This document shows positions 20,300 to 44,853 of a stretch of DNA of 64,000 nucleotides, piece by piece; within the stretch, counting starts at the first letter, position 1, and the number at the start of each line of letters is the position of its first letter. The translations under genes and the position numbers were made by a program. Under the pieces are notes generated by a model. It did not search any database and was not told where the DNA came from. It worked only from the letters and a program-made list of their open reading frames with translations. Source of the stretch: Nitrospira sp. (GTDB lineage: Bacteria > Nitrospirota > Nitrospiria > Nitrospirales > Nitrospiraceae); the NCBI GenBank assembly GCA_016788465.1, contig JAEURV010000186.1, forward strand, positions 988 through 64,987, read 5' to 3'.

Positions 20300-21391
20300 A
20301 TGGCATTTCTGTCTCCAGGACAACCGGTCCGTAGAGGGCTGTGCTGGGTTGCAGGGTTGTACGGCCTCGTCACCGGAGTTTCGCGATGGTGCTATCGACA
20401 GCGTTGGCTGCTTACCACACGATTGCCTTGTCCCGTCATCAGTGTGGGAAACCTGACGGTCGGAGGAACCGGAAAGACTCCGTTCGTGATTTTTCTGGCC
20501 CAACGATTGCTGGCGAAGGGATGGAGAGTGGCGATTTTGAGTCGAGGCTATAAGCGGACGGGTCATGCGCCGCAGGTACTGGTATCGGATGGAGTGCATA
20601 TCTTGGCTGATCCCTTGGACTCGGGGGATGAACCGTTCTTAATGGCTCAGCGCTGTCCCCAAGCCGTGGTCGCGGTGGGGGCTGATCGTGTTGCACTCGG
20701 TCGCTGGGTATTAGAGCGGCATCCGATCGATTGCATGATTCTGGATGATGGGTTTCAGCATCGTGCCCTTCATCGGGACGTTGATCTGGTGTTGCTGGAT
20801 GCCACTGATGCAGCCGGACTCGATGCAATGGTTCCGGCGGGAAGACTGCGAGAACCATTGACTGAACTGGATCGGGCGAGTGCGGTGGTCATCACCCGAG
20901 CCGATGTTCGCCACGAGGTCGATGCTATTCGAAGCCGTTTGAGTAGGACTCATTGTCCCCCCAACGACGCTATTGAAGTTGTGTTTCGACCGGAGTTTTT
21001 CATCGCAATCGTGTCCGGATCCTCACAGGCCATTGAATGGGGGAAAGGGAAAAAGGCTTGGTTGGTAAGCGGGATCGGCAATGGCTCTTCGTTTCATCGA
21101 TCGGTGGAATCTGTCGGGGTCGAGATTGTGGGTGAGACTATGTTTGACGATCATCATCGATACGATCATCACGAGATCGAGGATGTTCGCGCCAAGATGA
21201 AGCGGAGCGGGAGCGACATCGTGTTAACGACAGAAAAAGATGGTGGGAAACTGACTCCCTTGCTTGAGGCCAATGATCCTTGGTGGATGCTTCGTCTGGA
21301 AACATATGTTGTTCAGGGAGGAGATCGGTTGACTCGATTGATTGATGAGTCGTTATCACGAAGGTGCGATACGCCGGAAACCCATGAGTAG
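20300..21391 (+). CDS. lpxK: Tetraacyldisaccharide 4'-kinase
   Basis: 363 aa. P-loop ISVGNLTVGGTGKTPFV, then SRGYKR and ILDDGFQH motifs. Confidence 0.88.
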   Translation: MAFLSPGQPVRRGLCWVAGLYGLVTGVSRWCYRQRWLLTTRLPCPVISVGNLTVGGTGKTPFVIFLAQRLLAKGWRVAILSRGYKRTGHAPQVLVSDGVHILADPLDSGDEPFLMAQRCPQAVVAVGADRVALGRWVLERHPIDCMILDDGFQHRALHRDVDLVLLDATDAAGLDAMVPAGRLREPLTELDRASAVVITRADVRHEVDAIRSRLSRTHCPPNDAIEVVFRPEFFIAIVSGSSQAIEWGKGKKAWLVSGIGNGSSFHRSVESVGVEIVGETMFDDHHRYDHHEIEDVRAKMKRSGSDIVLTTEKDGGKLTPLLEANDPWWMLRLETYVVQGGDRLTRLIDESLSRRCDTPETHE

Positions 21392-23102
21392 AGAGCAACC
21401 TCGAAGAATCTTGCTGCGAGCTCCGAATTGGATCGGTGACGCCGTCATGTGCGAGCCTGCTCTGCGAGGTTTGAGGTCACTCTTTCCTGAGGCGGATGTC
21501 ACGATGTTGGCCAAATCGGCCGTTGCTGAGCTGTTCCGTGCCGCTCCGGAGTTGAATCGGGTGCTGATCTATGAGGACAAGGGAGCTCATGCCGGGATCT
21601 CGGGGAAGTGGGCGCTGGCTGGTCTGTTGCGGCGGCATGGATTCGACCTCGCCGTGCTGTTTCAGAACGCTTTTGAGGCGGCATTTATTGCATGGCTTGC
21701 CGGTATCCCACAACGGTATGGTTACGCAACTGATGGGCGAGTGTTCTTTCTGACCAAGCCTGTTGCTGTGCCTGCACGTCGCCAATCGGTTCATCAAGTC
21801 GAGTACTATTGGAATTTGTTGAAGCCCTTGGGCCTGTCCGGGAGTGCTCCGCTCCCGACATTGTGTGTGACTACGGACGAGACTCACGCTATGGAGGCGA
21901 GACTCGCTGCCCACGGGAGTGGGTCGTCGGATCTCGTGATCGGTATCAATCCTGGGTCGACCTACGGCAACGCGAAGCGATGGGTGCCTGAGCGGTTTGC
22001 CGAAGTCGCACAGCGACTTTCGGAACGAGTAGGCCGTGATGCAAGAAGGCAAGTGGTCGTGGTCATTCTAGGGGCGAAGGGCGAGGAGTCTTTGGGGAGG
22101 GACATCGCAGATCGAATCCACGGACGATCGGTAGTACTGTCCGGCCAAACGACGATTCGCGAGTTGATGGCAGTGGTCAAGCGATGTCACATTTTGATTA
22201 CTAATGATACTGGACCGATGCATGTGGCAGCTGCGTGCGGTGTACCAGTCGTTGCGGTCTTCGGCCCGACGGATTCGCGTACGACCGCTCCCTATGGGCA
22301 GGAGCAGTCGGTTGTTCGGGAGACTGTGGATTGTGCGCCTTGCCTACTTCGGGAATGCCCAATCGATCACCGGTGCATGACCCGCATTTCAGCCGACCGA
22401 GTGTATGAGGTGGCAGCGCAACAGCTGGACGGTCTGTCTCGTCCGTCTGGTCTATTTCACCTTTCTGGTGCAGACCAGACAGACCGGATAGACAAGACAA
22501 ACCAGTCAGGCCAGTCAAACATTCTTTCAGGGTACACCGTCTTTCTCGATCGTGACGGCACGCTCAATCCGGATCCTGGATACATCAACTCCCCGGACCA
22601 GTTTGACTTGTTCCCAGGAGTAGCGGAGGCACTTGGCCGTCTGAAACTGGCTGGTGCCCGATTGATCCTTGTGACGAATCAATCGGGTATCGCGAGGGGG
22701 TTCCTCTCGCGATACAATCTTGATGCCATTCACCAAAAGCTTGCTCGCTTGCTCGATCAGACGGGCGTGAGGCTGGATGGTATCTACTTCTGTCCTCACC
22801 ATCCGGATGACGGGTGTGGGTGTCGAAAGCCAAACCGTGGGATGATTGACCTGGCAGTCCAAGAACTGGGGGTGGATCTTGAGCGGTCCTATGTGATCGG
22901 TGATCATCTCCGTGATATCGAATTGGCTAAACGGGTGAGGGCACGAAGTGTCCTCGTGACCACCGGGGTGACTCGGCTGCAAGAACTTGACGAGTTGACG
23001 GAGTCTCCTCTCGCCCCTGACAGGGTTGCAACCTCCCTTGCTGAGGCTGTGGACTGGCTGTTGTCCGACGTGAAACAGAGAGCGCTATTGCACCATGAAT
23101 AG
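21384..23102 (+). CDS. Fusion protein: GT9 ADP-heptose:LPS heptosyltransferase (WaaF-like) and D,D-heptose 1,7-bisphosphate phosphatase (GmhB, HAD family)
   Basis: The N-terminal ~360 aa are GT9 (ILLRAPNWIGDAVM.., ITNDTGPMHVAAACGVPVVAVFGPT). A low-complexity linker follows. The C-terminal ~185 aa are HAD/GmhB (VFLDRDGTLN, VTNQSGIARG, CPHHPDDGCGCRKPNRGM, IGDHLRDIE). The start is chosen at ATG 21384 (MSREQPRRILL), overlapping the lpxK stop. Confidence 0.8.
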   Translation: MSREQPRRILLRAPNWIGDAVMCEPALRGLRSLFPEADVTMLAKSAVAELFRAAPELNRVLIYEDKGAHAGISGKWALAGLLRRHGFDLAVLFQNAFEAAFIAWLAGIPQRYGYATDGRVFFLTKPVAVPARRQSVHQVEYYWNLLKPLGLSGSAPLPTLCVTTDETHAMEARLAAHGSGSSDLVIGINPGSTYGNAKRWVPERFAEVAQRLSERVGRDARRQVVVVILGAKGEESLGRDIADRIHGRSVVLSGQTTIRELMAVVKRCHILITNDTGPMHVAAACGVPVVAVFGPTDSRTTAPYGQEQSVVRETVDCAPCLLRECPIDHRCMTRISADRVYEVAAQQLDGLSRPSGLFHLSGADQTDRIDKTNQSGQSNILSGYTVFLDRDGTLNPDPGYINSPDQFDLFPGVAEALGRLKLAGARLILVTNQSGIARGFLSRYNLDAIHQKLARLLDQTGVRLDGIYFCPHHPDDGCGCRKPNRGMIDLAVQELGVDLERSYVIGDHLRDIELAKRVRARSVLVTTGVTRLQELDELTESPLAPDRVATSLAEAVDWLLSDVKQRALLHHE

Positions 23103-27782: not shown

Positions 27783-27861
27783 AAAGCTGACGCTAAAGTG
27801 AGTGTGAAGGAGCAACTCGCGCCAATCTCGCTTCTCTTGTGAGTCGCGCATCGGATGCATC

Positions 27862-28386
27862 ATGAATGATCAGGCAGACCAGATGGACCAGACAGACAAT
27901 TTCAATTGGTATGCGCTGCGAACAAAGTCCCGTCATGAGAAGGTGGTGCGCGATCAGCTAGAGAAACAAGGAATCGAGCCCTTGCTTCCGACGGTCAAAC
28001 GGTTGAGTCAATGGAAGGACCGAAAGAAAGAAATCGAGGTCCCTCTGTTTCCCGGTTATTGTTTCGTCCGGCTTTCCCAACAAGAGAAGCTGCCGGCACA
28101 GAAAACGGCAGGTGTTGTCGAAATCGTCGGAAGCGGAAGTCGGCCTGAACCGATTCCGGACGCAGAAATCGAGGCACTGCGGCGTCTGATAACCAGTGTC
28201 TTGCCCTATGATCCGCACCCATATCTCCACGAAGGCATGAAAGTGGAAGTCATTCGTGGCCCCCTTCAAGGAGTGCACGGCATTCTGCTGAGAAAAGAAA
28301 AGCGTCATCGGCTTGTCATCGGTGTGCACCTGATTCAACAAGCGGCAGCGGTTGAAATCGATGTAAATGATGTAGTGGGCGTCTAA
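27862..28386 (+). CDS. NusG-paralog transcription antiterminator (RfaH/UpxY-like)
   Basis: NGN domain WYALRTKSRHEKVVRDQLEKQGIEPLLP..PLFPGYCFVR and a KOW motif GMKVEVIRGPLQGVHGILL. Located at the head of the polysaccharide gene block. Confidence 0.8.
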   Translation: MNDQADQMDQTDNFNWYALRTKSRHEKVVRDQLEKQGIEPLLPTVKRLSQWKDRKKEIEVPLFPGYCFVRLSQQEKLPAQKTAGVVEIVGSGSRPEPIPDAEIEALRRLITSVLPYDPHPYLHEGMKVEVIRGPLQGVHGILLRKEKRHRLVIGVHLIQQAAAVEIDVNDVVGV

Positions 28387-28507: not shown

Positions 28508-28984
28508 ATGAGTGCGTCCGAGATTGATTCCATGTACGGGAGTGCCGTCGTGGAAGGGATGAGGGTGCGCGCCGGAGTCGGAGTAGTTGTTCGCGGGCAG
28601 GGTGACACCATACTCCTTGAAAAGCGTCGCGATTGTGGCTGGTGGGGATTGCCTGGAGGAAGGGTGGAGCCTGGAGAGTCACTTGTCGAGGCTGCCGTAC
28701 GGGAAGTGTGTGAAGAGACGGGCCTCACCGTGGAAGTGACCCATCTCATCGGCGTGTATTCAAGCCCGGAAGGTCGTATCGTCACGTATCCGGATAACGG
28801 CGATGTCGTTCAACTTATCGATGTCGTCGTTGGCGCGCGAGTCCTATCCGGTCAAGTTACCTGCAGCGAGGAGAGTGAAGAGGTCCGTTTCTTTTCTCCA
28901 TCTCAATTGCCGGAACAGATTGTGCCTCCCGCTCGGCAACCACTTGCGGATGCGTTGGAAGGCCGATGCGGACTATTGAGATAG
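28508..28984 (+). CDS. NUDIX hydrolase
   Basis: Nudix box [27 protein letters not shown]. Confidence 0.85.
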
Positions 28985-30455: not shown

Positions 30456-31456
30456 AGACGCCGGGCCTTGTGACCATCATGGTGCCGGTTCTCAACGGCG
30501 AACTATTTCTCCCGTCGGCGCTGGAGTCCTTGCTGGCGCAAGACTACTCACAGTTTGAAATTGTGATTCTTGATAATCAGTCGACTGATCGGACGGCCGA
30601 GATTTGTCGTGAGTATGCACGTCGTGATCCGCGGGTGAAGTATGTGTTGGATGCCGTCAATCGGATTTCGCACGATGCTGCAAATCATCTGGCTACTTTT
30701 ATTACGGGTGAGTTCTGCATGATCGCCTGCGATGACGACCTGTGGGAGCCGAATTTTCTGGGGACTATGGTCAGGTATCTTCAGCTCTACCCCGATGTCG
30801 GATTGGTATTTCCTAACGCCTGCTATGTGGATGTCGACGGTAATCGGGGCGCGCAGCGGTTGTTGGCCGGTCGCCATTTATATAGGAGGGAGGATTCCGC
30901 TTTTCGAAATGTGTGGAGGTATCTCGGGCAACGCCGGGTGGTTCCGACAATCTTCGGGGTCTATCGGAGCGAGGCGTATATGGCGGCGCTCCCGTTCGAT
31001 ACATTCGACGAAACAATTGCCGATGTGGATAATCTTTTTCTTATCAAGCTATTGACGCTGACGAAGGTGCAAGGGCTTGATGCGGTCCTTTTTTACTATC
31101 GGAATAAATTCCGCGGGTTTGACCCGTCCAATGGGAAAAGTTGGTCTTCTGCCTGGTCGTTCTACACCGGACATCAATGGAGATTTCTCCGGAAAAGTCT
31201 CAACGTGGTGGATCATGCACCGCTGTCCAATGTGGAACGGTTCTTACTTCGGGTGCGTTCCTGCTATGCGTTCGTCGCGGTCGTTTCATTTTTGCGAGTC
31301 AGGTCTAACCTCGGGAAGATCTTGGTTCGTCTTAAATTTCGAGAAGGACCGTCGATCGCGAAGGATATCCACACGGACATTCGCTCAACGGCCTTGCAAG
31401 CAGCGCACGGTGATGTGAAGGCGGTCGGGGATGCCAATATTGGTTTCAAAAGTTAA
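30452..31456 (+). CDS. Glycosyltransferase family 2
   Basis: VTIMVPVLNGELFLPSALESLLAQDYSQFEIVILDNQSTDRT and ACDDD (DxD). The true start is ATG 30452 (ATGA overlap with the flippase stop). The 29882 upstream extension overlaps the flippase gene. Confidence 0.8.
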   Translation: MKTPGLVTIMVPVLNGELFLPSALESLLAQDYSQFEIVILDNQSTDRTAEICREYARRDPRVKYVLDAVNRISHDAANHLATFITGEFCMIACDDDLWEPNFLGTMVRYLQLYPDVGLVFPNACYVDVDGNRGAQRLLAGRHLYRREDSAFRNVWRYLGQRRVVPTIFGVYRSEAYMAALPFDTFDETIADVDNLFLIKLLTLTKVQGLDAVLFYYRNKFRGFDPSNGKSWSSAWSFYTGHQWRFLRKSLNVVDHAPLSNVERFLLRVRSCYAFVAVVSFLRVRSNLGKILVRLKFREGPSIAKDIHTDIRSTALQAAHGDVKAVGDANIGFKS

Positions 31457-31541: not shown

Positions 31542-33089
31542 ATGCCCATCGCAACTCGACAGCTTGATGTGCTCTTCGTCAATGCCGACTCTTCCTTGCA
31601 AGCCTATCAAGGACTAGCGAAGACCTATTCGGCGATCGAACCACCGACATGGGCGCTGTTGTTGGCACAGTCATGTCGGGCCAAGAGTTTTGGCGCGGCG
31701 ATTTTAGATTGTGACGCAGAGAAGCTGCCATTATCTGAGGCAGTGAGTCGGATTCAGGATGCGAATCCGCGGCTGGTGGTATTTGTCGTCTATGGGCAAA
31801 ATCCCAATTCGGGGACGACCGGAATGATCGGCGCCAGTGCCCTTGCGAAGGAGGTCAAGCAACAGCATCCACATTTCCCGATCTGTTTTGTAGGATCTCA
31901 TACCAGCGCGTTGCCCATGGAGGTCCTGCAACTCCCGTTCGTCGACATCGTACTCCTGAATGAGGGAGTGTATGCGCTGCATAATCTTTTACAGACAGAT
32001 CTCCGTTCTGGGCTACAAGCCGTGAAGGGCATTGGATATAAAGTCGTTGAGTCTGATGGAAAGAGTCGCCCGATCCTGAATGAGCCGCAATCGGTAGTTC
32101 CACAAGATCGTATGGATATCGACATGCCTGGCTACGCATGGGATCTCCTGCCGTACCGATCCCGACCGCTCGACTTATATCGTGCGCACTTCTGGCATGC
32201 CGAGTTCGACCATGAGAAACGTACCCCCTTCGCGGCCATTTATACATCACTTGGATGCACGTTTGCCTGCGATTTTTGCATGATCAATATTGTCAACCGG
32301 GTGGATAACGGCAATGGGGTTGATGCGTCCCATTCACGCGGGATGCGGTTTTGGAGCGCGAAGTTGATCACGGCTGAACTTGAGAAGCTCGCAAAACTGG
32401 GGGTGCAGACCATCCGGATCAGCGACGAAATGTTCTTCTTGAATCGAAAGTACTACGAGCCTCTCTTACGGGACATCATCGAACGAGATTTGCGATTAAG
32501 GATGTGGGCCTACGCGCGAGTCGATACCGTACGACATGAGTACATCAATTTGTTCAGGCAGGCCGGTATTAATTGGTTGGCGCTTGGGATAGAAGCCGGT
32601 AACCAAACCGTGAGGCAGGAGGTTTCGAAGGGCTCTTTCCAGGAGGTCAACATCCGAGCCGTCTGCGATAAGGTGCGGGCCGAGGGAATGAATATCATCA
32701 GTAACTACATTTTCGGATTCCCTGACGATACGCTGGAGACGATGGGAGAGACCTTGAATTTAGCGCTTGAGCTGAATACCGAGATGGCGAATATGTATCC
32801 CTGTCAGGCCTTGCCGGGAAGTCCGATGTATCATCTGGCCAAGCAGCAAGGCTGGAAATTGCCGGATAACTATAGTGGATATGCGTTCTTGTCCTACGAC
32901 AGCCAGCCGCTTCCCACCAAGCATGTTACGGCAGCGGACGTGTTGCGGTTCCGTGATGACGCGTGGCAGCGATACTTTTCGAGTGCGGCGTATCTCAAGC
33001 TGGTTGAGACGAAGTTCGGTCAGAAGGAACGGGCAAATGTTGAAGCCATGGCCAAGGTGCCGTTGCGCCGAAAACTGCTCGGTGATTGA
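31542..33089 (+). CDS. B12-binding-domain radical SAM enzyme (class B, methyltransferase-like)
   Basis: 515 aa. N-terminal Rossmann-like B12-binding region (VLFVNADS.., VVFVVYGQNP), then the canonical cluster motif CTFACDFC (C239/C243/C246, nt 32256..32279) and a TIM-barrel-like core. Confidence 0.8.
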   Translation: MPIATRQLDVLFVNADSSLQAYQGLAKTYSAIEPPTWALLLAQSCRAKSFGAAILDCDAEKLPLSEAVSRIQDANPRLVVFVVYGQNPNSGTTGMIGASALAKEVKQQHPHFPICFVGSHTSALPMEVLQLPFVDIVLLNEGVYALHNLLQTDLRSGLQAVKGIGYKVVESDGKSRPILNEPQSVVPQDRMDIDMPGYAWDLLPYRSRPLDLYRAHFWHAEFDHEKRTPFAAIYTSLGCTFACDFCMINIVNRVDNGNGVDASHSRGMRFWSAKLITAELEKLAKLGVQTIRISDEMFFLNRKYYEPLLRDIIERDLRLRMWAYARVDTVRHEYINLFRQAGINWLALGIEAGNQTVRQEVSKGSFQEVNIRAVCDKVRAEGMNIISNYIFGFPDDTLETMGETLNLALELNTEMANMYPCQALPGSPMYHLAKQQGWKLPDNYSGYAFLSYDSQPLPTKHVTAADVLRFRDDAWQRYFSSAAYLKLVETKFGQKERANVEAMAKVPLRRKLLGD

Positions 33090-33130: not shown

Positions 33131-34132
33131 ATGATCATCACGAGAACTCCGTTCCGCATCTCGTTTTTCGGCGGCGGGACCGACTATCCGGCTTGGTATC
33201 AGGAGCATGGCGGCGTGGTCTTGGCCACCTCGATCGACAAATACTGTCACATCAGTTGCCGCTATCTTCCGCCTTTTTTCGAACATAAGCATCGCATCGT
33301 CTATTCCATTATCGAGAATGTGCGGCGGATCGATGAGATCAAGCATCCTGCCGTTCGAGCCATTCTGTCTTGGGCCGAGTGTGACGATCCGGGGCTTGAG
33401 ATTCATCACGACGGCGATCTGCCGGCTCGGTCCGGTCTCGGATCCAGTTCCTCGTTTACGGTGGGGCTGATCCATGCCTTAGCAGCCTTGCGCGGAAAAT
33501 ACATTTCGAAGGACGAGCTTGCGGCCCAAGCGATCAATATGGAGCAACATATCATCAAGGAGAATGTCGGGTCGCAGGATCAGATTTCGGCTGCCTTCGG
33601 AGGGTTCAATCGAATTGATTTCAAGAAAAACGATACGTTTCAGGTTTCGCCCATTATTTTGGCGAAGGACCGGTTGCATGAGTTTCAGTCGCATCTCATG
33701 CTGTGCTTTACCGGGTTTTCTCGCATTGCATCAGAAGTCGCCAAATCGAAGATCGACAACTTCAAGAGGCGAGAAGCCGAGCTCCACCGAATGAAGGAGA
33801 TGGTCGATGAAGCGATCAAGGTCCTCCAAAACTCACGGACTTCGATCGACGAAGTCGGCAGGTTGCTTCACGAGAGCTGGGTCTGTAAGCGTAGCCTTTC
33901 GGACAGAGTCTCGACGCCGGAAATTGATCAGTTATACGAAGAGGCGGTACGCGTCGGCGCGCTAGGCGGGAAGATTCTCGGAGCAGGCGGCGGAGGCTTT
34001 CTGCTGTTGTTTGTGAAGCCGGAATTACACCTAAAGGTTCAAGAGCGATTGAAGCATTTGGTGCATGTGCCGTTCCGGTTTGAAAGTTCGGGAAGTCGTG
34101 TGGTCTTGTACCAACCGAATGGGCTTTCTTGA
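33131..34132 (+). CDS. GHMP-family sugar kinase, D-glycero-D-manno-heptose 7-phosphate kinase (HddA)-like
   Basis: 333 aa with RTPFRISFFGGGTDYPAWY and the GHMP ATP motif PARSGLGSSSSF, plus GAGGGGFLLLF near the C-terminus. Confidence 0.75.
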   Translation: MIITRTPFRISFFGGGTDYPAWYQEHGGVVLATSIDKYCHISCRYLPPFFEHKHRIVYSIIENVRRIDEIKHPAVRAILSWAECDDPGLEIHHDGDLPARSGLGSSSSFTVGLIHALAALRGKYISKDELAAQAINMEQHIIKENVGSQDQISAAFGGFNRIDFKKNDTFQVSPIILAKDRLHEFQSHLMLCFTGFSRIASEVAKSKIDNFKRREAELHRMKEMVDEAIKVLQNSRTSIDEVGRLLHESWVCKRSLSDRVSTPEIDQLYEEAVRVGALGGKILGAGGGGFLLLFVKPELHLKVQERLKHLVHVPFRFESSGSRVVLYQPNGLS

Positions 34133-34133
34133 G

Positions 34134-35141
34134 ATGACGATGAAACAAGATGCCGTCACGTATGTCGCAGGACATGCCGGCCTTATCGGATCGGCGGTTG
34201 TTCGGCGATTGGAGCGGGAGGGGTATCGAACGCTCATCACGAAACGGCGGAATGAGTTGGATCTACAGAATGCCGCGGCAGTCGATGAATTTTTTGAGGA
34301 GGTTCGTCCAGAGTATGTGATTCTTGCCGCAGGGCGAGTCGGCGGAATTATGGAAAATCAGTCATTCCCCGCCGACTTCATGGACGAGAATGTCGCCATT
34401 CAGCTGAATGTGCTGAAGGCGGCCCGGAAAACTGGGGTGCGAAGGATGATTCTATTCGGCTCCTCCTGCATGTATCCCAGGGAATGTCCTCAACCAATGG
34501 CCGAAGCCGCTCTTCTCTCCGGCAAACCCGAACCAACCAGTTTGCCCTATGCCGTTTCCAAGCTCCTCGGTACGTACATGTGCCTGGCGTATAATAAACA
34601 AGATCGGGAGGCCCGATTTATTCCGGTGATTCCCAATAGCGCTTATGGGCCTTATGACAATTTTGATCCGAAGTCGGCCCATGTTCTTTCAGCGCTTCTC
34701 GCGCGCTTTCATGAAGCAAAGGTGACCGGCGCCCAATCGATCTGCTTGTGGGGCACCGGCTCACCGAGACGGGAGTTTATTCACGCCGACGATATTGCGG
34801 GTGCGTGCGTTCATCTCTTGCTCGAGGAAGATCTCACGGTCGAGTTCCCGATTAATATTGGGATCGGGGAGGATGTTTCAATCAAAGAATTGGCCGAGTT
34901 GATCGCCGGTGTCGTCGGCTATAGAGGAGAGCTCAATTGGGATTCGACCAAGCCCGACGGTGCTCCTCGGAAACTCCTGGATAGCGCCCGCATCAGGTCC
35001 TTAGGGTGGAAGCCCCGTATCGGGCTTCGTGAGGGACTTACGGAGACATACCGGTGGTATGTGAATCATCTAAAGACCGCGCCTGTCCCGATGCAGGTGG
35101 GGGGCGATAATCGGACTGGAGCTCAGGTTTCTTGCGCTTGA
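34134..35141 (+). CDS. GDP-L-fucose synthase family epimerase/reductase (Fcl/ColC-like)
   Basis: From ATG 34134: VAGHAGLIGSAVVRRL, AAGRVGGIMENQSFPADF, LFGSSCMYPRECPQPMAE, PYAVSKL, YGPYDNFDPKSAHVLSALLARFHEAK. Close colinear resemblance to E. coli Fcl as I recall it. Confidence 0.85.
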   Translation: MTMKQDAVTYVAGHAGLIGSAVVRRLEREGYRTLITKRRNELDLQNAAAVDEFFEEVRPEYVILAAGRVGGIMENQSFPADFMDENVAIQLNVLKAARKTGVRRMILFGSSCMYPRECPQPMAEAALLSGKPEPTSLPYAVSKLLGTYMCLAYNKQDREARFIPVIPNSAYGPYDNFDPKSAHVLSALLARFHEAKVTGAQSICLWGTGSPRREFIHADDIAGACVHLLLEEDLTVEFPINIGIGEDVSIKELAELIAGVVGYRGELNWDSTKPDGAPRKLLDSARIRSLGWKPRIGLREGLTETYRWYVNHLKTAPVPMQVGGDNRTGAQVSCA

Positions 35142-35168
35142 TACGCCTGGCATACGAAGGATGAAACG

Positions 35169-35768
35169 ATGACAAAAGAAGAGTTGATTGAATTCGAGGA
35201 AGAAGTCGCCGCGTTATTCAACGCAGGGAAAATTCGCGCCCCCATTCATCTGTACTATGGGAATGAGGAGGCCATCATTGAAGTCTTTCGCGCCATTCGA
35301 GCTCAGGACTGGGTGTTCTGCTCATGGCGGTCTCATTATCAGTGTTTGCTGAAGGGAGTACCGAAGGATCGCGTCCGGGACGAGATCTTGGCCGGACGGT
35401 CGATCTCGCTGTGCTTCCCGGAGCAGCGGGTCTTCTCTTCAGCGATTGTCGGCGGAGTGTTACCGATTGCCGTCGGAGCAGCCATGTCGATTCAGCAGCG
35501 TGGGGAGGACGCCATGGTCTACTGCTTCATGGGAGATATGACGGCTGAGACGGGTATTGCGCATGAATCAATCAAATACAGCCGAAACCACCAGTTGCCG
35601 ATCCGCTTTATCATCGAGGACAACGCAAAATCGGTCTGTACCGATACCAGGGAGACGTGGAATCAGCCTCGACTGACTTATGAAGAAGTCAATGATGAGT
35701 ACATCAGCTACTACCGCTACGAAACGAAGTATCCGCATGCTGGTGCCGGCGTGCGGGTCCAGTTTTAA
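35169..35768 (+). CDS. Thiamine-diphosphate-dependent enzyme, short E1 alpha-like subunit
   Basis: 199 aa. The ThDP-binding GD-x(~27)-N motif is FMGDMTAETGIAHESIKYSRNHQLPIRFIIEDN. Confidence 0.7.
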   Translation: MTKEELIEFEEEVAALFNAGKIRAPIHLYYGNEEAIIEVFRAIRAQDWVFCSWRSHYQCLLKGVPKDRVRDEILAGRSISLCFPEQRVFSSAIVGGVLPIAVGAAMSIQQRGEDAMVYCFMGDMTAETGIAHESIKYSRNHQLPIRFIIEDNAKSVCTDTRETWNQPRLTYEEVNDEYISYYRYETKYPHAGAGVRVQF

Positions 35769-35776
35769 GGTGACCT

Positions 35777-36313
35777 ATGAAATATTTTGATGAGCTGAAG
35801 CGGTCGATGAATTTCTTGGCACAAGATCCACGGACGGTGTTTCTGGGCCAGGCGGTGGCCGTTCCGGGAACAGCCATGAGTAACACGCTCAAGGAAGTGC
35901 CCTCTCATCGATTGATCGAGCTGCCGGTGGCCGAGGAAATGCAAATGGGGATGACGACGGGCCTTGCCCTCACCGGACTTATACCCGTCAGTGTCTTCCC
36001 GAGATGGAATTTTCTGATCTTGGCGATCAACCAGTTGGTCAATCACCTGGACAAGATTCACCTGATGTCCAACGGAGGATACAAGACGAAGGCCATTATC
36101 CGGACGGGAATCGGATCTCAGCGTCCGCTCCATCCGCAGCATCAGCATGTCGGAGACTTTACGGAGGCGATCCGCATGATGTGCAGCACGGTAGAAATCA
36201 TTCGTTTGGAAGAACCCAAAGATGTCTTCCCGGCCTATGAGTGGGCGTTGCAGCGTGAGGATGGACACAGCACGATCATTGTTGAGTACGGAGACTATTA
36301 CAACGAGAAATAA
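35777..36313 (+). CDS. Short E1 beta-like (transketolase pyrimidine-binding domain) subunit
   Basis: 178 aa with RLIELPVAEEMQMGMTTGLALTG (catalytic Glu region). It lacks the C-terminal domain of canonical E1 beta. Sits 8 nt after the alpha-like gene. Confidence 0.7.
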   Translation: MKYFDELKRSMNFLAQDPRTVFLGQAVAVPGTAMSNTLKEVPSHRLIELPVAEEMQMGMTTGLALTGLIPVSVFPRWNFLILAINQLVNHLDKIHLMSNGGYKTKAIIRTGIGSQRPLHPQHQHVGDFTEAIRMMCSTVEIIRLEEPKDVFPAYEWALQREDGHSTIIVEYGDYYNEK

Positions 36314-36469
36314 CAGGGCAGTGAAACAACCAGCCGGATTCGTTCTCGTAGTACTAGTCAGTACCTAAAATCTTAGCAGGGCGGCATTCTTGAGCCGTCT
36401 AAATTGTCCGACCACAACTTGGAGTGGCGAAATTGGATCGATGGCTCCCATGAATGTGAATAGGTCGTT

Positions 36470-37639
36470 ATGAAATATCCTCTTATGCGGAACAATATTC
36501 TCCGGGAAGATTTGGATGCGGTGATTGAGCATCTCAAACAGGACGATCCGATCTTGACGCACGGTCGAAATGTGCGGGACTTTGAGTCTGAGTGGTCCGC
36601 CTGGTTGGGTGTGAAACACAGTGTGTTCGTCAATTCCGGCGCATCTGCGAATCTCTTGACGATGGCGATTCTGAAAATCCGCTATCCCGAAGGTGGTGAA
36701 GTGATCGTTCCGCCGTTGGCCTGGGTTTCCGATATCGCCTCGGTGCTGCAGAATGGATTCACTCCCGTTTTCGTCGACATCGATCCCAGGACATTGGGGA
36801 TGGATCCAGCAAAAATTTGTGCTGCCATCACGGAGCGGACCCGTGCAGTATTCTTGACTCATGTGCAAGGGTTCGATGCGCTGGACGATAGGTTACTGAA
36901 AGAGTTGCAGCAGCGAAGAGTTCCGCTGATCGAGGACGTCTGTGAGTCTCATGGGGCCACGCATCAAGGACGGAAATTGGGAAGTTTCGGCTGGATATCA
37001 AATTTCTCCTTCTACTACGCGCACCATATGAGCACGATCGAGGGGGGCATGATTTGCACGGACGACCCGGAGGTGTATCAGCAGGTACGCATGTTGCGCT
37101 CGCACGGGATGGTTCGAGAGGCCAGCGATCCGGCGGTGCTTGCGGCCTATCGCTCGGAGAATCCTGAGTTGAATCCTGATTTCATCTTTGCGTTTCCCGC
37201 GTATAACACACGTAATACGGAAATCGGGGGTATCCTTGGCCGAAGCCAGCTCAAGCGTCTGGATCGCAACGTGAGGCGACGGACGGACAATCTGTTACGG
37301 TTTATGAAACAGCTTGATTCAAGCAAGTACCGAACTGATTTCAAGATGGAAGGGTCCAGTAACTATGCGTTCAACCTTATCTTGAAACGTCCGGACAATG
37401 CCTTGGTTGAGCGTCTGATGAATGTGATGCGTGAGGCGGGGATCGAGTTCCGACGAGGAAGTGCGGGTGGTGGTAATCAGATTCGCCAGCCGTATCTGAA
37501 AGGTGTTGTTCCCAAGGACCACCATCTGGAGTTCCCCGAAACCGAACATATCCACTTTTATGGTTTCTACATCGGCAACTATCCGGATTTGCGCGATGAA
37601 GAGATCGATGGACTGTGCAAGGTTTTGAATTCCGCATGA
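36470..37639 (+). CDS. PLP/PMP-dependent sugar 3-dehydratase of the DegT family, ColD/E1-like (His replaces the Schiff-base Lys)
   Basis: 389 aa. NFSFYYAHHMSTIEGGMICTDDPEVY aligns with ColD FSSFYSHHIATMEGGCIVTDDEEIY as I recall it. His186 (nt 37025..37027) occupies the Lys position of DegT aminotransferases. Confidence 0.8.
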   Translation: MKYPLMRNNILREDLDAVIEHLKQDDPILTHGRNVRDFESEWSAWLGVKHSVFVNSGASANLLTMAILKIRYPEGGEVIVPPLAWVSDIASVLQNGFTPVFVDIDPRTLGMDPAKICAAITERTRAVFLTHVQGFDALDDRLLKELQQRRVPLIEDVCESHGATHQGRKLGSFGWISNFSFYYAHHMSTIEGGMICTDDPEVYQQVRMLRSHGMVREASDPAVLAAYRSENPELNPDFIFAFPAYNTRNTEIGGILGRSQLKRLDRNVRRRTDNLLRFMKQLDSSKYRTDFKMEGSSNYAFNLILKRPDNALVERLMNVMREAGIEFRRGSAGGGNQIRQPYLKGVVPKDHHLEFPETEHIHFYGFYIGNYPDLRDEEIDGLCKVLNSA

Positions 37640-37646
37640 GAGTGCC

Positions 37647-38390
37647 ATGCCTTCGGCCGTGATTCTGGCTGGTGGGCTGGGGACTAGGCTGCGGAGCGTC
37701 GTGTCCGACCTTCCGAAGCCCATGGCTCCCATCCGTGGCCGCCCTTTTCTTGAACATCAGCTCGATTATTGGATCAACCAGGGGATCAGCCGGTTTGTGT
37801 TGTCCGTAGGATACCGGCATGAAGCTATTACCGGTCATTTCGGGTCTCGCTATAAAGGTATTCACCTTGAATATGCCGTCGAGGAACAACCGTTAGGAAC
37901 CGGTGGCGGATTGTTGATGGCTGCGGAGAAACTCGACCCGGATAAGCCGTTCTTGCTTTTGAACGGCGATACGTACTTTGAGGCCGACTGGACGGTGTTG
38001 GATGCCTTTGCCATGGAGCATGGGGCCGACTGGTGTTTTTCATTGTTCAGGACGAGTGAGAAGGGGCGATACATGGGCATCGAGATGTCCGCTCAGGGAC
38101 GGATCACCTTGTTGAAGTCCGGGGTTGAGCAGGGGCCTCGCCTTGCCAATGGGGGAGTGTATTGGGTGCATCCGCGTGCGTTGACTGGGGCTGGCAGATT
38201 GGGTGCAAAGTTATCGTTAGAAGACGATCTGTTTCCCCAGGCGCTCGCGGCCGGACACCGATTATTGGGGATAGAGTTTCGTGGGACCTTTATCGATATC
38301 GGGGTCCCTGATGATTATCATCGGGCATCAAGCTTGTTGGTGGGTAGGGACGATAGGACCGCACAATCAACGGAGAGGACACGACGATGA
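37647..38390 (+). CDS. Sugar-1-phosphate nucleotidyltransferase, D-glycero-D-manno-heptose 1-phosphate guanylyltransferase (HddC)-like
   Basis: AVILAGGLGTRLRSVVSDLPKPMAPIRGRPFLEHQLDYW, SVGYRHE and EEQPLGTGGG, a pattern close to HddC-type enzymes. Confidence 0.8.
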   Translation: MPSAVILAGGLGTRLRSVVSDLPKPMAPIRGRPFLEHQLDYWINQGISRFVLSVGYRHEAITGHFGSRYKGIHLEYAVEEQPLGTGGGLLMAAEKLDPDKPFLLLNGDTYFEADWTVLDAFAMEHGADWCFSLFRTSEKGRYMGIEMSAQGRITLLKSGVEQGPRLANGGVYWVHPRALTGAGRLGAKLSLEDDLFPQALAAGHRLLGIEFRGTFIDIGVPDDYHRASSLLVGRDDRTAQSTERTRR

Positions 38391-39325
38391 GCTATAACAT
38401 TCTTGTGACCGGTGGCGCAGGCTATCTCGGCTCCACTCTGGTGCCGGACCTTCTGCAGCAAGGCCACAACGTCACGGTGCTGGATAACTTCATGTACAAG
38501 CAGGCCAGTCTGAATCATGTGTGCCATCATCCCAAGTTTTCAGTCGTAAAAGGTGATATCCGTATCGAAAGCGTGATGGCTCCGTTGATCAAGAAGGCCG
38601 ATGTCGTGATTCCACTAGCCGCGCTGGTGGGGGCGCCGATGTGCAGCCAAGACCCGGTGGGGGCAACCACCGTCAACCATGATGCCATTTTGTTGATGCT
38701 GAAGCTGTTGTCGAAGCAGCAGATGGTCCTCATGCCTACCACCAACAGCGCCTACGGTACCGGGGATAAGGATAACTTTTGTACGGAAGAGTCTCCGTTG
38801 AATCCCATTTCCCTCTACGCCAAGGAGAAGGTCGGCATTGAAAAGGAGCTGATGCAGCGGGAAAACGCCATCAGTTTTCGTTTGGCGACCGTATTCGGGA
38901 TGTCGCCGCGCATGCGGATCGATTTATTGGTGAATGATTTCACCTATCGGGCGGTGTACGATCGCTTCGTGGTGCTGTTCGAGAGTTCCTTTAAACGAAA
39001 TTATGTTCACGTGCGTGATATCTCACGCGTCTTTCAGCACGGCATCGAACATTTCGGCAAGATGAAAGGTCAGATCTACAATGTCGGTCTGTCCGACGCC
39101 AATGTGTCGAAAAGAGAGTTGTGCGAGCATATCCAGAAACAGGTTCCTGACTTTGTGTTCGTTGATGCTCCGGTCGGTAAGGATCCGGATCAACGCAACT
39201 ATATTGTGTCCAACGCCAAAATCGAATCGACCGGGTTCAAGCCGATCTACGCACTCGATGCAGGCATCAGTGACCTGATTAAGGGTTACACGATGATCAA
39301 GAACACACGCTATGGGAATGTGTGA
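38387..39325 (+). CDS. NAD-dependent epimerase/dehydratase (extended SDR)
   Basis: ILVTGGAGYLGS Rossmann motif and catalytic YAKEK (YxxxK). ATGA overlap with the upstream gene. Confidence 0.8.
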   Translation: MSYNILVTGGAGYLGSTLVPDLLQQGHNVTVLDNFMYKQASLNHVCHHPKFSVVKGDIRIESVMAPLIKKADVVIPLAALVGAPMCSQDPVGATTVNHDAILLMLKLLSKQQMVLMPTTNSAYGTGDKDNFCTEESPLNPISLYAKEKVGIEKELMQRENAISFRLATVFGMSPRMRIDLLVNDFTYRAVYDRFVVLFESSFKRNYVHVRDISRVFQHGIEHFGKMKGQIYNVGLSDANVSKRELCEHIQKQVPDFVFVDAPVGKDPDQRNYIVSNAKIESTGFKPIYALDAGISDLIKGYTMIKNTRYGNV

Positions 39326-39391: not shown

Positions 39392-40192
39392 ATGATGCTG
39401 ATTGTTAGACTGTTACATAATGTATATCGTTACCAGTCGATGATCCTGGCTCTTGCAGGTCGAGAGTTACAGAGCCGATACGTGGGGACATTGGGTGGAA
39501 TTCTATGGACGTTCGCACATCCGTTGGCGATCATCACCATCTTTTATTTCGTATTTGCGTTGGGGTTTCGGTCGCAAGGCCCCGATGGCGCTCCCTTCAT
39601 GCTCTGGTTTGTGTGTGGATTGGTTCCCTGGTTTTTTTTTAATGAAACATTGTTGGCTGCGACCGATTCAATTACGCGACATGCTCATTTAATAAAAAAA
39701 ACTGTCTTTCCTTCTGAGATTCTTCCGATGGTGAATATTACTGCGGGTCTTATTCCTCATGCGATCTTTATGCTCATTGTGGCAGGCTTGCTGGTGTGGT
39801 TTGAGGTTTCATTGCTGGCAGGTAGATTGCTGGTCGTCTATTTTCTTCTCTGTACGTGTGTCTTACTTATTGGTCTCAGTTGGCTGCTCTCTGCAATACA
39901 GGTTTTTTATCGTGATGTTTCACATGCCGTATCGATTTTGCTTAACTTGTGGTTCTGGTCGACCCCGATTGTCTGGTCATCGGACATGATACCGGCGGAG
40001 TATCGTGGGTTATTGTTCTATAATCCTATTTACTACATCACTGAAGGGTATCGAGGCTCGTTGGTCTTCGGTGAGCTCGTGTGGCCGAGTGCAGCTCACA
40101 CAGTCTACTTCTGGTTCATTGTGATTGCGATGTTTCTAGTCGGCGCGTACGTATTCAGCAGATTGAAACCAGAATTCGCCGATGTAATGTAG
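39392..40192 (+). CDS. wzm: ABC-2-type polysaccharide export permease
   Basis: 266 aa with six hydrophobic helices. The N-terminal LAGRELQSRYVGTLGGILWTFAHPL signature is typical of Wzm/TagG permeases. Confidence 0.85.
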   Translation: MMLIVRLLHNVYRYQSMILALAGRELQSRYVGTLGGILWTFAHPLAIITIFYFVFALGFRSQGPDGAPFMLWFVCGLVPWFFFNETLLAATDSITRHAHLIKKTVFPSEILPMVNITAGLIPHAIFMLIVAGLLVWFEVSLLAGRLLVVYFLLCTCVLLIGLSWLLSAIQVFYRDVSHAVSILLNLWFWSTPIVWSSDMIPAEYRGLLFYNPIYYITEGYRGSLVFGELVWPSAAHTVYFWFIVIAMFLVGAYVFSRLKPEFADVM

Positions 40193-40200
40193 TTCTTCCC

Positions 40201-41553
40201 ATGCGGCCTTCTCCCGTCGTTCAGGTTCAGAGCGTATCTAAGAAGTTCAGACTCTTCGCTTCTCCGAAGGAGCGTCTTTTTGAAGCACTACACCCGTTTC
40301 GCAAACAGTATCATCACGAGTTTTGGGCGCTACGTAATATTTCCTTTGAGGTTCGGCCAGGGGAAGTTGTCGGTATTCTAGGGAGAAATGGATCCGGGAA
40401 GTCAACCTTGTTGCAGATCGTTTGCGGGGTGATGCAGCCAACGAACGGTGAAGCTCGGGTTGATGGACGAATTGCTGCTTTGCTTGAACTCGGCGCTGGA
40501 TTCAATCCGGAGTTTACAGGGAGAGACAATGTCATTTTGAACGGCGCGATTATGGGATTCTCTCGAAAGGAGATGCTGCGACGGTTGCCAGAGATCGAGG
40601 CCTTTGCTGACATCGGAGAGTTTTTTGACCAACCGGTCAAAACCTACTCATCTGGAATGTTCGTGCGGGTCGCATTTGCAGCCGCAATTCACGTCGACCC
40701 GGATCTCTTGGTGGTGGATGAAGCTCTCGCTGTCGGTGATGCAAAGTTTCAACGCAAATGTCTGCTGCAACTCGAGAAAATTCGCGCAAACGGTGCGGCC
40801 ATTCTCTTTGTCTCCCATAGTTTGGAGACCATTACAAGTCTTTGCAGTCGAGCGATTATCTTGGAAAATGGATCACTCGTTTGCGATGGCCAACCGAAGG
40901 TGGTCGCTGAACAATATCTGACTCTTCTCTTTTCCGAGTCACGAGTGGAGAAACGGAGTGGGTCTTTGAAAGGAGAGCCTGCTTCGGTATCAGATGGTCA
41001 ATATCTTGAGGCAGTCCAATCAACTGGCGGTTCAGTTTGTATTGACGAGTCTATATGGACGGATGTCCCGATTTCTCAAAGGTTTGGGTACAACCGTCAT
41101 GAAATCCGTACAACGAATGGCGGTGCAACCATCATCGACTATGTGATGATGGCAAATGGCCGTACTGACTTCCCGTGCATTGTTTCAGGAACCGCGTTGA
41201 CGATTTTCGTGAAGGCTCAGTTTATGGAGAGTGTCACACAGCCCATTGTCGGGTTTGATTTAAAAACGGACAAAGGAGTTACCATTATATCTTCCAATAC
41301 CTTTCTGTCTCAGACTCCGCTGCGGCATGCTCAGTATGGTGAGACAAGAATTTATCAGCTTGACCTAAGTACACCGTTGAATGAAGGCGATTACTTTATT
41401 GATCTAGGAATAGCTAAGTACGATGGGAGCCAAGGAGGAGCCGTCTTGGACGTCCGACGGTCTATTATACATCTGGTAATCAGTCCTGTGTCGGAGAAGA
41501 GATTCAATGGAATCGTGGATATTGGATTTAGGTTTGGAGAGATCCCTCGATAA
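40201..41553 (+). CDS. wzt: Polysaccharide export ABC ATPase with C-terminal glycan-terminus-binding (Wzt_C-like) beta-sandwich domain
   Basis: Start at ATG 40201 (MRPSPVVQVQSVSKKF). Walker A GRNGSGKST, signature YSSGMFVRVAFA, Walker B LLVVDEALAVGD. A further ~200 aa beta-rich extension (TIIDYVMM..TIFVKAQF..YFIDLGIAKY..IHLVISP) follows. Confidence 0.85.
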   Translation: MRPSPVVQVQSVSKKFRLFASPKERLFEALHPFRKQYHHEFWALRNISFEVRPGEVVGILGRNGSGKSTLLQIVCGVMQPTNGEARVDGRIAALLELGAGFNPEFTGRDNVILNGAIMGFSRKEMLRRLPEIEAFADIGEFFDQPVKTYSSGMFVRVAFAAAIHVDPDLLVVDEALAVGDAKFQRKCLLQLEKIRANGAAILFVSHSLETITSLCSRAIILENGSLVCDGQPKVVAEQYLTLLFSESRVEKRSGSLKGEPASVSDGQYLEAVQSTGGSVCIDESIWTDVPISQRFGYNRHEIRTTNGGATIIDYVMMANGRTDFPCIVSGTALTIFVKAQFMESVTQPIVGFDLKTDKGVTIISSNTFLSQTPLRHAQYGETRIYQLDLSTPLNEGDYFIDLGIAKYDGSQGGAVLDVRRSIIHLVISPVSEKRFNGIVDIGFRFGEIPR

Positions 41554-44646: not shown

Positions 44647-44853
44647 TTTCCTTATCGCTGCTGGGAAGCCGGTCAATGAAATGAGAACGGGGCAACCCGG
44701 TATGGTTTGATCAGATACAAACAGTTGATCAATGCCGGACATGGGATTATAAGTAATTATCCAGTCATCATTTCCGACCCTGACAAAGCATCTTCCCGAG
44801 GAAGCACATAACAGTTGTCACACCTATTCACCAACTTGGATATGAGGTGAGTG

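Follow-up and report, generated by a model that had tools for sequence, protein, structure and literature searches.

Which sugar is made by a run of genes that combines enzymes of GDP-heptose formation with a 3-dehydratase of the colitose type and with a thiamin diphosphate (ThDP)-dependent enzyme pair of the E1 type? The question is raised by a stretch of 64,000 nucleotides from Nitrospira sp. (assembly GCA_016788465.1, contig JAEURV010000186.1, positions 988 to 64,987 of the forward strand; the whole stretch is called the window hereafter). An initial annotation had picked out seven genes at 33131-39325, coding for a HddA-like kinase, a short-chain dehydrogenase/reductase (SDR) of the Fcl/ColC type, E1 alpha and beta chains, a ColD-like enzyme, a HddC-like transferase and a second SDR, and had read them as the pathway to an unusual GDP-heptose or GDP-hexose. 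All seven open reading frames (ORFs) are present on the plus strand, their domain assignments hold, and they are packed in the manner of an operon, with intergenic gaps of -4 to 41 nt and a single longer gap of 156 nt between the E1 beta and the ColD-like gene, the sequence of which occurs only once in the window and is kept only in the closest Nitrospira loci. The chances are somewhat better than even that the cassette to which they belong encodes a nucleotide-sugar pathway in the service of an ABC-transporter-dependent O-antigen, converting GDP-heptose into a branched, tailored 3-deoxy sugar.

The gene combination is a widespread and highly conserved eight-gene cassette found in many phyla. 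A genome scan gave 56 loci with E1 alpha identities of 65-99%, in Nitrospira, Massilia, Herbaspirillum, other Burkholderiales, cyanobacteria, SAR11, SAR116, Verrucomicrobia, Acidobacteria and Desulfatiglandales; it leaned almost wholly on one 8-mer, QDWVFCSW, which catches ~81% of the close relatives and no distant ones. Co-occurrence was counted in those 39 loci in which the E1 alpha gene is flanked by 7 kb or more on either side; the partners were E1 beta (39), the Cj1427-like SDR (39), the kinase (38), the transferase (37), the ColD-like enzyme (36), a B12-binding radical S-adenosylmethionine (radical-SAM) enzyme (33), the Fcl-like SDR (29), and genes of the HAD (13) and SIS (12) families. 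The radical-SAM gene, described at first as lying just upstream, is indeed there, and by this count it is a core member rather than a mere neighbor. A more distant relative of E1 alpha (47% identity, locus L061) resides in the same kind of cassette. Among cultured bacteria, Herbaspirillum seropedicae (WP_069375131.1), H. lusitanum (RL21-008-BIB-A) and Massilia spp. (for one, strain LXY-6) were found to be carriers; we know of no lipopolysaccharide (LPS) structure for the carrier strains. No match to the cassette version of an enterobacterial metagenome-assembled genome (MAG) was obtained in 5,426 complete E. coli genomes, and the plasmids searched held only canonical E1 at ~30% identity. The initial annotation had not recognized the combination: a literature search of incomplete coverage likewise retrieved no paper describing the cassette or its E1 family, and a text search for GDP-heptose together with thiamine and radical SAM gave nothing relevant, but the combination is by no means peculiar to this genome.

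The direction of the pathway would be set by the last SDR, which is 52% identical to PDB entry 6vo6 in a gap-free alignment of 311 of 312 residues. The sequence of 6vo6 is that of a Campylobacter jejuni protein of 313 amino acids, and 6vo6 and 6vo8 are entries for Cj1427. Tyr 144 and Lys 148 of the Tyr-x3-Lys motif are invariant in 50 of 50 orthologues, and the Rossmann-fold glycines Gly 9, Gly 10, Gly 12 and Gly 15 are found in 49 of them, the remaining sequence being gapped in this region. The protein is therefore assigned, on its sequence, as a GDP-heptose C4-dehydrogenase of the Cj1427 type. An enzyme of this type would yield a 4-keto group without deoxygenation at C6, so that the 4,6-dehydratase of related pathways would be replaced, not missing; and since O-6 is kept, the predicted sugar would be a 3-deoxy rather than a 3,6-dideoxy sugar. 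A 4,6-dehydratase of the Gmd/DmhA type had not been obvious at first, and none emerged later: the Gmd-type motif GxxGQDG does not occur in the 64-kb window, no Gmd-type gene lies within the cassette gene run of any related locus examined, and the sole Gmd-type gene seen, in the SAR11 locus L048, is located outside the cassette on the opposite strand. In vitro, Cj1427 and the C. jejuni C3-dehydratase together give GDP-D-glycero-3-deoxy-4-keto-heptose, and the GDP-3-deoxy-heptoses obtained were presented by the authors as novel products of new enzyme mixtures (PMC10680097). The Cj1427-like family is larger than the E1 family of the cassette and is found without the latter, too. Along these lines, two nearly identical loci that carry no such E1 genes, L068 in a MAG of the Bacillota and L069 on a metagenome contig from JGI, encode Cj1427-like dehydrogenases (7851-9942) with 66-67% identity to Cj1427. 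Their neighbors code for a GHMP kinase, a DAO-family oxidase and methyltransferases. Modification of heptoses by way of a C4-dehydrogenase would therefore extend far beyond Campylobacter.

The heptose origin of the substrate, proposed in the initial annotation on account of HddA, HddC and GmhB, is borne out by the closest structural relatives of the enzymes concerned. For the kinase, the best PDB matches are the heptose-7-phosphate kinases 3k85, 4n3o and WcbL 4usk (~1e-34); for the transferase, they are the HddC structures 6jq8 and 5xhw from Yersinia pseudotuberculosis (3e-31). A comparison with profile models, which had been recommended, returned HddA (NF049969) and HddC (NF049965) as the best NCBIfam models, yet with 148 bits against a cutoff of 600 and 160 bits against a cutoff of 300, respectively, both enzymes remain below the equivalog threshold. 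The fusion of WaaF with GmhB was confirmed; its HAD part shares 37% identity with the HAD protein encoded in the Massilia cassette, no other GmhB-type phosphatase is encoded in the window, and the fusion probably acts in both heptose pathways, that of the core and that of the O-antigen. A homologue of GmhA (SIS family) is absent from the 64-kb window, in line with the initial annotation. SIS (GmhA-type) and HAD (GmhB-type) genes do reside inside the orthologous cassettes of Massilia, Herbaspirillum, SAR11 and cyanobacteria, and single cassettes of Massilia (L004), SAR11 (L052) and a cyanobacterium (L038) unite all four types, GmhA, HddA, GmhB and HddC; in SAR11 the HddC-like transferase is fused to a HAD phosphatase. 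Cassettes without SIS and HAD genes, the one from Nitrospira included, must therefore borrow the housekeeping GmhA and GmhB of core heptose, and this borrowing argues for ordinary D-glycero-D-manno-heptose, not a longer sugar, as the precursor.

Removal of the hydroxy group at C3 can be attributed to the ColD-type enzyme. Its closest structures are ColD 2gms (8.6e-55), 3b8x, 2r0t and 3gr9 (all ~1e-54), and the diagnostic histidine named by this assignment is present: His 185, in the segment YYAHHMST, aligns with His 188 of ColD, a position marked by the H188N mutant 3b8x. This histidine, which replaces the Schiff-base lysine of the aminotransferases, is invariant in 50 orthologues. A 4-keto-6-deoxy substrate supplied by Gmd, as expected for ColD itself, has no evident source here, Gmd being absent from the window and from the related cassette runs; the keto sugar would be provided by the C4-dehydrogenase. 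The Fcl/ColC-like SDR is an accessory member. Its reading frame is open from 34065, with the ATG at 34134 directly after the stop codon of the kinase gene; it matches the GDP-fucose synthase model NF047922 with 392 bits (cutoff 500) and the GDP-fucose synthase structure 8du0 at 2e-95. Ser 110, Ser 111, Cys 112, Tyr 139, Lys 143 and His 183, which we take to be the catalytic residues after the E. coli enzyme, are invariant in 40 orthologues. The enzyme would act as an epimerase at C5 (3,5-epimerase) and possibly as a ketoreductase as well. In SAR11, an RmlC-type cupin epimerase stands in place of the Fcl-like gene; because a pure epimerase can take this place, it is suggested that C5 epimerization is the conserved requirement, and that reduction is optional.

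The ThDP-dependent E1 alpha/beta pair noted in the initial annotation is retained in its cofactor residues and truncated to the ThDP-binding cores, for which reason the two proteins are called mini-E1 here. Canonical E1 alpha chains comprise ~320-400 amino acids, the beta chains carry a Transketolase_C domain, and E2 and E3 act as partners. Mini-E1 alpha (199 amino acids) has no C-terminal half, mini-E1 beta (178 amino acids) has no Transketolase_C domain, and domain annotation of the window and of a set of related loci revealed no gene for E2 or E3. The ThDP/Mg motif of the alpha chain, Gly 122-[Asp/Glu] 123...Asn 152, is conserved in 58 sequences, and the cofactor-activating residue Glu 53 of the beta chain is invariant in 55. 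At residue 123 of E1 alpha (window 35535-35537), the GDG motif reads G-D-M, and 30 of the 58 family members have glutamate at this position; glutamate in place of the Mg-binding aspartate is unusual among ThDP enzymes. The proteins resemble the 2-oxoacid-decarboxylating E1 enzymes, not transketolase. All E1 equivalog models of NCBIfam score far below their cutoffs, and no curated family reaches its cutoff for mini-E1 alpha. The family is large: 122 clusters of a 50%-identity library match the alpha chain at E<=1e-30, nearly all of them ~200 amino acids long, and more than 6600 clusters at 90% identity do so at E<=1e-60. The beta gene adjoins the alpha gene in 39 of 39 loci, the pair sits amid sugar genes in nearly all loci, and it is accompanied by genes for a keto nucleotide sugar, the C4-dehydrogenase in 39 of 39 and the 3-dehydratase in 36 of 39. 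It may be rationalized as a free-standing ThDP carboligase, shorn of those parts with which canonical E1 works together with E2.

Other arrangements of mini-E1 genes deserve mention at this point. In five of five SAR11 loci (L048, 5039-11143; L049; L050; L051; L057), the pair adjoins a second, longer E1 alpha/beta pair (279 and 305 amino acids). In L048, a protein of 566 amino acids like acetolactate synthase and YerE is encoded just upstream, such that three ThDP systems lie side by side, with a separate DegT aminotransferase and a Gmd-like gene nearby. Relatives of mini-E1 with 35-37% identity are found in L065 (492-9508) and L066 (1799-3472) beside SPASM- and B12-type radical-SAM genes and glycosyltransferases, and no heptose genes are visible in these two loci. 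Their neighbors suggest that the partnership of ThDP and radical-SAM enzymes in polysaccharide loci is broader than the heptose cassette, and that this link runs deep.

The radical-SAM enzyme of the cassette has the features of class B, the cobalamin-dependent type, namely an N-terminal B12-binding domain (PF02310, 45 bits, cutoff 32) and a radical-SAM core (PF04055, 61 bits) with the motif CxxxCxxC. The three cysteines, Cys 239, Cys 243 and Cys 246, are invariant in 44 orthologues. Its best PDB match is the diol dehydratase AprD4, restricted to the radical-SAM domain. With four divergent cassette versions as queries, the NCBIfam model HpnJ came first (100-176 bits, cutoff 578) and BchE second (82-134 bits, cutoff 481), both over nearly the full length. 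BchE is regarded as an enzyme that forms a five-membered carbocycle. The same has been proposed for HpnJ (PMC9092360). As an indication of ring formation these ranks were put aside as weak: the other B12 radical-SAM protein of the window, taken as a control, prefers a C-methyltransferase model, but unrelated B12 radical-SAM proteins encoded beside distant mini-E1 genes match HpnJ first, too. Methylation, ring closure and dehydration are all conceivable; on the branched sugar, the putative role of the enzyme is C-C ring closure or C-methylation.

On this basis, a pathway of six steps can be proposed. GDP-heptose would be formed with GmhA from elsewhere in the genome, the HddA-like kinase, GmhB from the WaaF fusion and the HddC-like transferase (step 1). 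The Cj1427-like SDR would oxidize C4 and leave C6 untouched, giving GDP-D-glycero-4-keto-D-lyxo-heptose (step 2), from which the ColD-like enzyme, dependent on pyridoxamine 5'-phosphate (PMP), would strip the 3-hydroxy group to yield GDP-D-glycero-3-deoxy-4-keto-heptose (step 3). C5 would then be epimerized by the Fcl-like enzyme, or by the RmlC-type cupin in SAR11 (step 4). The mini-E1 pair would add a two-carbon unit, most likely hydroxyethyl-ThDP derived from pyruvate, to the C4 ketone, with a 4-C-acetyl tertiary alcohol as product (step 5), to be tailored by the radical-SAM enzyme and by the reductase activity of the Fcl-like enzyme through ring closure, C-methylation and/or reduction of the acetyl ketone (step 6). 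Steps 1-3 appear well supported by close homology to characterized enzymes and by gene context; steps 4-6 we infer from enzyme class, co-occurrence and the cassettes without a reductase. The latter are represented by the compact SAR11 cassette of L052 and L053, flanked by glycosyltransferases, which holds SIS, E1 alpha and beta, the kinase, the ColD-like enzyme, the radical-SAM enzyme, the cupin epimerase, the Cj1427-like SDR and the HAD-transferase fusion. Because this cassette has no reductase, its C4 ketone must be consumed by something other than reduction, and C-C bond formation is the obvious candidate. Branching at C4 by a two-carbon unit is proposed because E1 alpha/beta pairs without E2 and E3, the alpha-KADH2 class, are established for such chemistry (PMC12247030), and because the course as a whole parallels yersiniose biosynthesis, although with other enzymes throughout (PMC9306805). 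Of the deoxyheptose predicted by the initial annotation, the 3-deoxy position, a probable two-carbon branch and tailoring by radical SAM would thus remain; its 3,6-dideoxy, colitose-like variant does not agree with the predicted retention of O-6.

Several observations weigh against this proposal. The kinase, the transferase and the Fcl-like SDR all score below the NCBI equivalog cutoffs, and may accept substrates other than those of the textbooks. All residues for reduction at C4 are kept in the Fcl-like enzyme, which could simply reduce the 3-deoxy-4-keto sugar and so leave no ketone for the ThDP enzyme. The radical-SAM gene is missing from 6 of the 39 loci and the Fcl-like gene from 10, and the end product is probably not the same everywhere. 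Both donor and acceptor of the mini-E1 family are putative. Finally, we know of no natural 3-deoxy-4-C-(acetyl or hydroxyethyl)-heptose, and no O-antigen heptose with a hydroxyethyl branch came up in a text search. If the Cj1427-like, ColD-like and Fcl-like enzymes acted in sequence and by themselves, an unbranched GDP-D-glycero-3-deoxy-L-heptose would result, the 6-hydroxymethyl analogue of colitose, with the mini-E1 pair and the radical-SAM enzyme responsible for the synthesis or attachment of another substituent of the polysaccharide. These two propositions, which go together, are rather unlikely, although the Fcl-like SDR is about as near to the bifunctional GDP-fucose synthases as ColC would be and retains the residues for epimerization and reduction, and although C. 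jejuni reductases convert the same 3-deoxy-4-keto intermediate to GDP-3-deoxy-heptoses in vitro (PMC10680097). It is the distribution of the genes that speaks for branching: mini-E1 is tied more tightly to the C4-dehydrogenase (39/39) and the 3-dehydratase (36/39) than is the Fcl-like gene (29/39), the sugar genes enclose the E1 genes in nearly all loci, and reductase-free cassettes exist (L052/L053).

Two further readings carry far less weight. The presence of ColD and Fcl/ColC homologues in one gene run would be in keeping with a colitose-like 3,6-dideoxy GDP-heptose or GDP-hexose, made with a Gmd/DmhA 4,6-dehydratase encoded elsewhere in the genome, and C. jejuni does produce 3,6-dideoxyheptoses by way of a 4,6-dehydratase and a C3-dehydratase (PMC10680097). 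This is improbable in view of the C4-dehydrogenase of the Cj1427 type, which keeps O-6, in 39 of 39 loci, with neither a Gmd-type gene in the cassette run of any locus examined nor its motif in the window. On the other hand, ThDP enzymes do extend sugar phosphates, and the GDP-octose route of the lincosamides sets a precedent for a longer sugar. Were mini-E1 to act first, like transketolase or DXS, an octulose or nonulose phosphate would be formed and converted by the SIS, kinase, HAD and transferase enzymes to a GDP-octose or GDP-nonose, for which the scores of kinase and transferase, far below the HddA and HddC cutoffs, would leave room. Such a course is highly improbable: most cassettes, that of Nitrospira included, have no SIS and HAD genes of their own and must rely on GmhA and GmhB of core-heptose formation, the SDR shares 52% identity with an enzyme for which there is a structure with GDP-heptose, the mini-E1 proteins are like the 2-oxoacid-decarboxylating E1 and not like transketolase, and an acetyl donor would lead to a 1-deoxyketose that a GmhA-type isomerase could not use.

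Within the preferred reading, a branched 3-deoxy-heptose, one may ask which sugar is finally obtained. It is conceivable, if doubtful, that the cassette represents the biosynthetic route to carbocyclic sugars of the caryose type, the biosynthetic origin and mode of formation of caryose having been stated as unknown in a 2022 review (PMC9092360). Speculatively, the structure of caryose maps one-to-one onto the minimal cassette, with its heptose backbone, O-6, the 3-deoxy position, and at C4 a two-carbon unit with a methyl group. O-6 would be kept through the use of a C4-dehydrogenase in place of a 4,6-dehydratase, the 3-deoxy position would come from the ColD-like enzyme, and C5 would be inverted relative to D,D-heptose by the Fcl-like or the cupin epimerase; C8 and C9, the methyl group, would stem from pyruvate and be put on the C4 ketone by the mini-E1 pair. 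The radical-SAM enzyme would then close the cyclopentane (C7-C8) by attack of a C7 radical on the acetyl carbonyl, with no need for a reductase. By our own reading of the systematic names, caryose and D-glycero-D-manno-heptose agree in configuration at C2 and C6, the two centers that this chemistry does not touch. Mildly against this assignment, Trinickia caryophylli was absent from the genome scan with its one 8-mer, which catches ~81% of close relatives and no distant ones, and no Trinickia protein was among the top 120 of more than 6600 protein matches to a Burkholderiales query sequence. Two other sugars were considered and rejected. Erwiniose (3,6,8-trideoxy-4-C-hydroxyethyl-octose) might have been composed of a heptose, a two-carbon unit and a radical-SAM methyl group; published work derives it from a CDP-3,6-dideoxyhexose and a C4 donor by way of the YerE-like ErwE (PMC9306805). 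For bradyrhizose, the candidate cluster is centered on a dTDP-glucose 4,6-dehydratase, and the paper names no thiamine, transketolase or radical-SAM enzyme, heptose appearing in it solely as a sugar abbreviation.

It is instructive to compare the cassette with the systems known from other bacteria. The capsular GDP-heptose pathways of C. jejuni, studied in the Raushel and Holden laboratories, share with it the precursor route by GmhA, HddA, GmhB and HddC, the C4-dehydrogenase family (52% identity), PMP-dependent 3-deoxygenation, and the subsequent use of epimerase and Fcl-like reductase families; however, the 3-dehydratase of C. jejuni (HS:5) acts after a 4,6-dehydratase, leading to 3,6-dideoxyheptoses, its pairing with the C4-dehydrogenase was reported only as an in vitro mix, and neither a ThDP enzyme nor a B12 radical-SAM enzyme takes part (PMC10680097). 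In yersiniose A biosynthesis (YerE, YerF; relatives ErwE and MygE), a 3-deoxy-4-keto nucleotide sugar is likewise made first, a ThDP-bound acyl anion from a 2-oxoacid is transferred to C4, and reduction of the branch ketone is optional (PMC9306805). YerE is a single-chain flavoenzyme of the acetolactate-synthase type (decarboxylase superfamily) working on a CDP-3,6-dideoxyhexose, whereas the cassette has a split E1-type pair, GDP as the carrier, a heptose with O-6, and 3-deoxygenation of the ColD rather than the E1/E3 type. The colitose pathway (Gmd, ColD, ColC) has in common a histidine-containing 3-dehydratase and an Fcl/ColC-like SDR for a GDP-linked 4-keto sugar, and differs in its Gmd, in contrast to the Gmd-free cassette with a heptose substrate and O-6 retained. 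A further comparison is that with the alpha-KADH2 enzymes, which use TDP-deoxyhexoses as substrates and are near to full-length E1 in size. Compared with these, mini-E1 consists of only the PP and Pyr domains, half of its family has glutamate for the Mg-binding aspartate, and the likeness is one of class. The alpha-KADH2 enzymes of aldgamycin, kosinostatin, avilamycin and kibdelomycin (KbDH-alpha/beta) act on actinomycete deoxysugars as E1 alpha/beta heteromers without E2 and E3, transferring a two-carbon unit from pyruvate to a keto sugar to give a tertiary alcohol; they belong to antibiotic gene clusters, the mini-E1 pairs to LPS or capsular polysaccharide loci of Gram-negative and other bacteria (PMC12247030). 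Thus, all enzyme superfamilies of the cassette are already known. New are the pairing of C4-dehydrogenase and C3-dehydratase in a natural operon, the constant association of mini-E1 with a B12 radical-SAM enzyme in abundant environmental bacteria and, should the model hold, a miniature E1-type enzyme for the branching of a GDP-heptose.

The surroundings agree with a function in O-antigen synthesis. By domain annotation, the 64-kb window is an LPS super-locus of Nitrospira read along the plus strand (Table 1). It opens with BamA, LpxA, LpxB, MsbA, KdtA and LpxK, followed by the WaaF-GmhB fusion, two further family-9 heptosyltransferases, a MarR-like gene, a 23S-IVS gene and a NusG paralogue, then by the NUDIX gene, a protein of unknown family, a family-2 glycosyltransferase (GT2), the radical-SAM gene, the seven genes discussed here, and Wzm and Wzt. 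Beyond these lie methyltransferases, glycosyltransferases, a second B12 radical-SAM protein of 1160 amino acids, AsnB, a WecA-type initiating transferase and an O-antigen ligase. The cassette is the head of an ABC-transporter-dependent O-antigen operon. Wzm and Wzt, directly 3' of it in most Nitrospira loci, presumably export the polysaccharide that carries the cassette sugar.

Table 1. Position of the cassette genes and of associated genes in the window
Feature	Coordinates	Strand	Basis
WaaF-GmhB fusion	21342..23102	+	Glyco_transf_9 + HAD; HAD ~22539-23090
NUDIX hydrolase	28508..28984	+	Pfam NUDIX
B12-binding radical-SAM enzyme, core cassette member	31542..33089	+	Pfam B12-binding + Radical_SAM
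HddA-like GHMP kinase (putative D-glycero-D-manno-heptose 7-phosphate 1-kinase)	33131..34132	+	GHMP N and C domains
Fcl/ColC-like SDR, accessory cassette member	34134..35141	+	GDP-fucose synthase model
Mini-E1 alpha, ThDP diphosphate-binding (PP) domain only	35169..35768	+	E1_dh positions 6-176 of 300
Mini-E1 beta, ThDP pyrimidine-binding (Pyr) domain only	35777..36313	+	Transket_pyr 17-167 of 174
ColD-type PMP-dependent C3-dehydratase	36470..37639	+	DegT family; ColD is best PDB match
HddC-like transferase (putative heptose-1-phosphate guanylyltransferase)	37647..38390	+	nucleotidyltransferase
Cj1427-type extended SDR (predicted GDP-heptose C4-dehydrogenase)	38387..39325	+	PDB 6vo6/6vo8 at 2e-110
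Wzm + Wzt (C-terminal carbohydrate-binding domain)	39392..41553	+	ABC2_membrane; ABC_tran + Wzt_C

Some features of the locus may be added. The NUDIX protein, possibly a nucleotide-sugar hydrolase, is loosely associated with the cassette; its gene is kept on the 5' side across the Nitrospira loci, and an unlike NUDIX gene is located on the 3' side in L034, L025, L026 and L037. Immediately 5' of the O-antigen operon, a MarR-like regulator, a four-helix protein of the 23S rRNA intervening-sequence type and a NusG paralogue (RfaH/UpxY-like) are encoded at 26676-28386 (+), a trio that looks like a dedicated antitermination module. Two long ORFs on the same strand, 28998-30455 and 29882-31456, overlap by 574 nt in different frames. 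The product of the former (485 amino acids) has no family match and is kept beside the cassette in Nitrospira loci; in that of the latter, the GT2 domain begins only at residue 198, for which reason the true start probably lies near 30455. Downstream of the cassette, at 40081-42871 (+), the gene for Wzt with its C-terminal carbohydrate-binding domain precedes one for a Methyltransf_24 protein; this arrangement usually marks an O-polysaccharide in which a terminal methyl cap determines chain length. A small ORF at 44185-44646 (+), between glycosyltransferase and radical-SAM genes of the O-antigen locus, codes for a ThsB-like TIR domain, which is typical of anti-phage defense systems. The 1160-residue protein (44851-48333, +) has its B12-binding radical-SAM core at about residues 270-630, between long N- and C-terminal extensions without family match, and its best NCBIfam model is a radical-SAM C-methyltransferase of the type acting on ribosomally synthesized and post-translationally modified peptides (104 bits). 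It is followed, still within the O-antigen locus, by a classical SDR at 48330-49202 (+).

If the proposal is correct, the cassette would provide a natural pathway to 3-deoxy, 6-hydroxy heptoses, so far obtained only by mixing C. jejuni enzymes in vitro. It would also be the first E1-type ThDP system for sugar branching beyond the actinomycete antibiotics, acting on GDP-heptose with chains of just 199 and 178 amino acids, and a candidate for a pairing of ThDP and radical-SAM chemistry on sugars, possibly for carbocyclic LPS sugars such as caryose. The sugar so formed would reside in the surface polysaccharides of bacteria that dominate their environments, among them the nitrifying Nitrospira, SAR11, SAR116, cyanobacteria and Burkholderiales.

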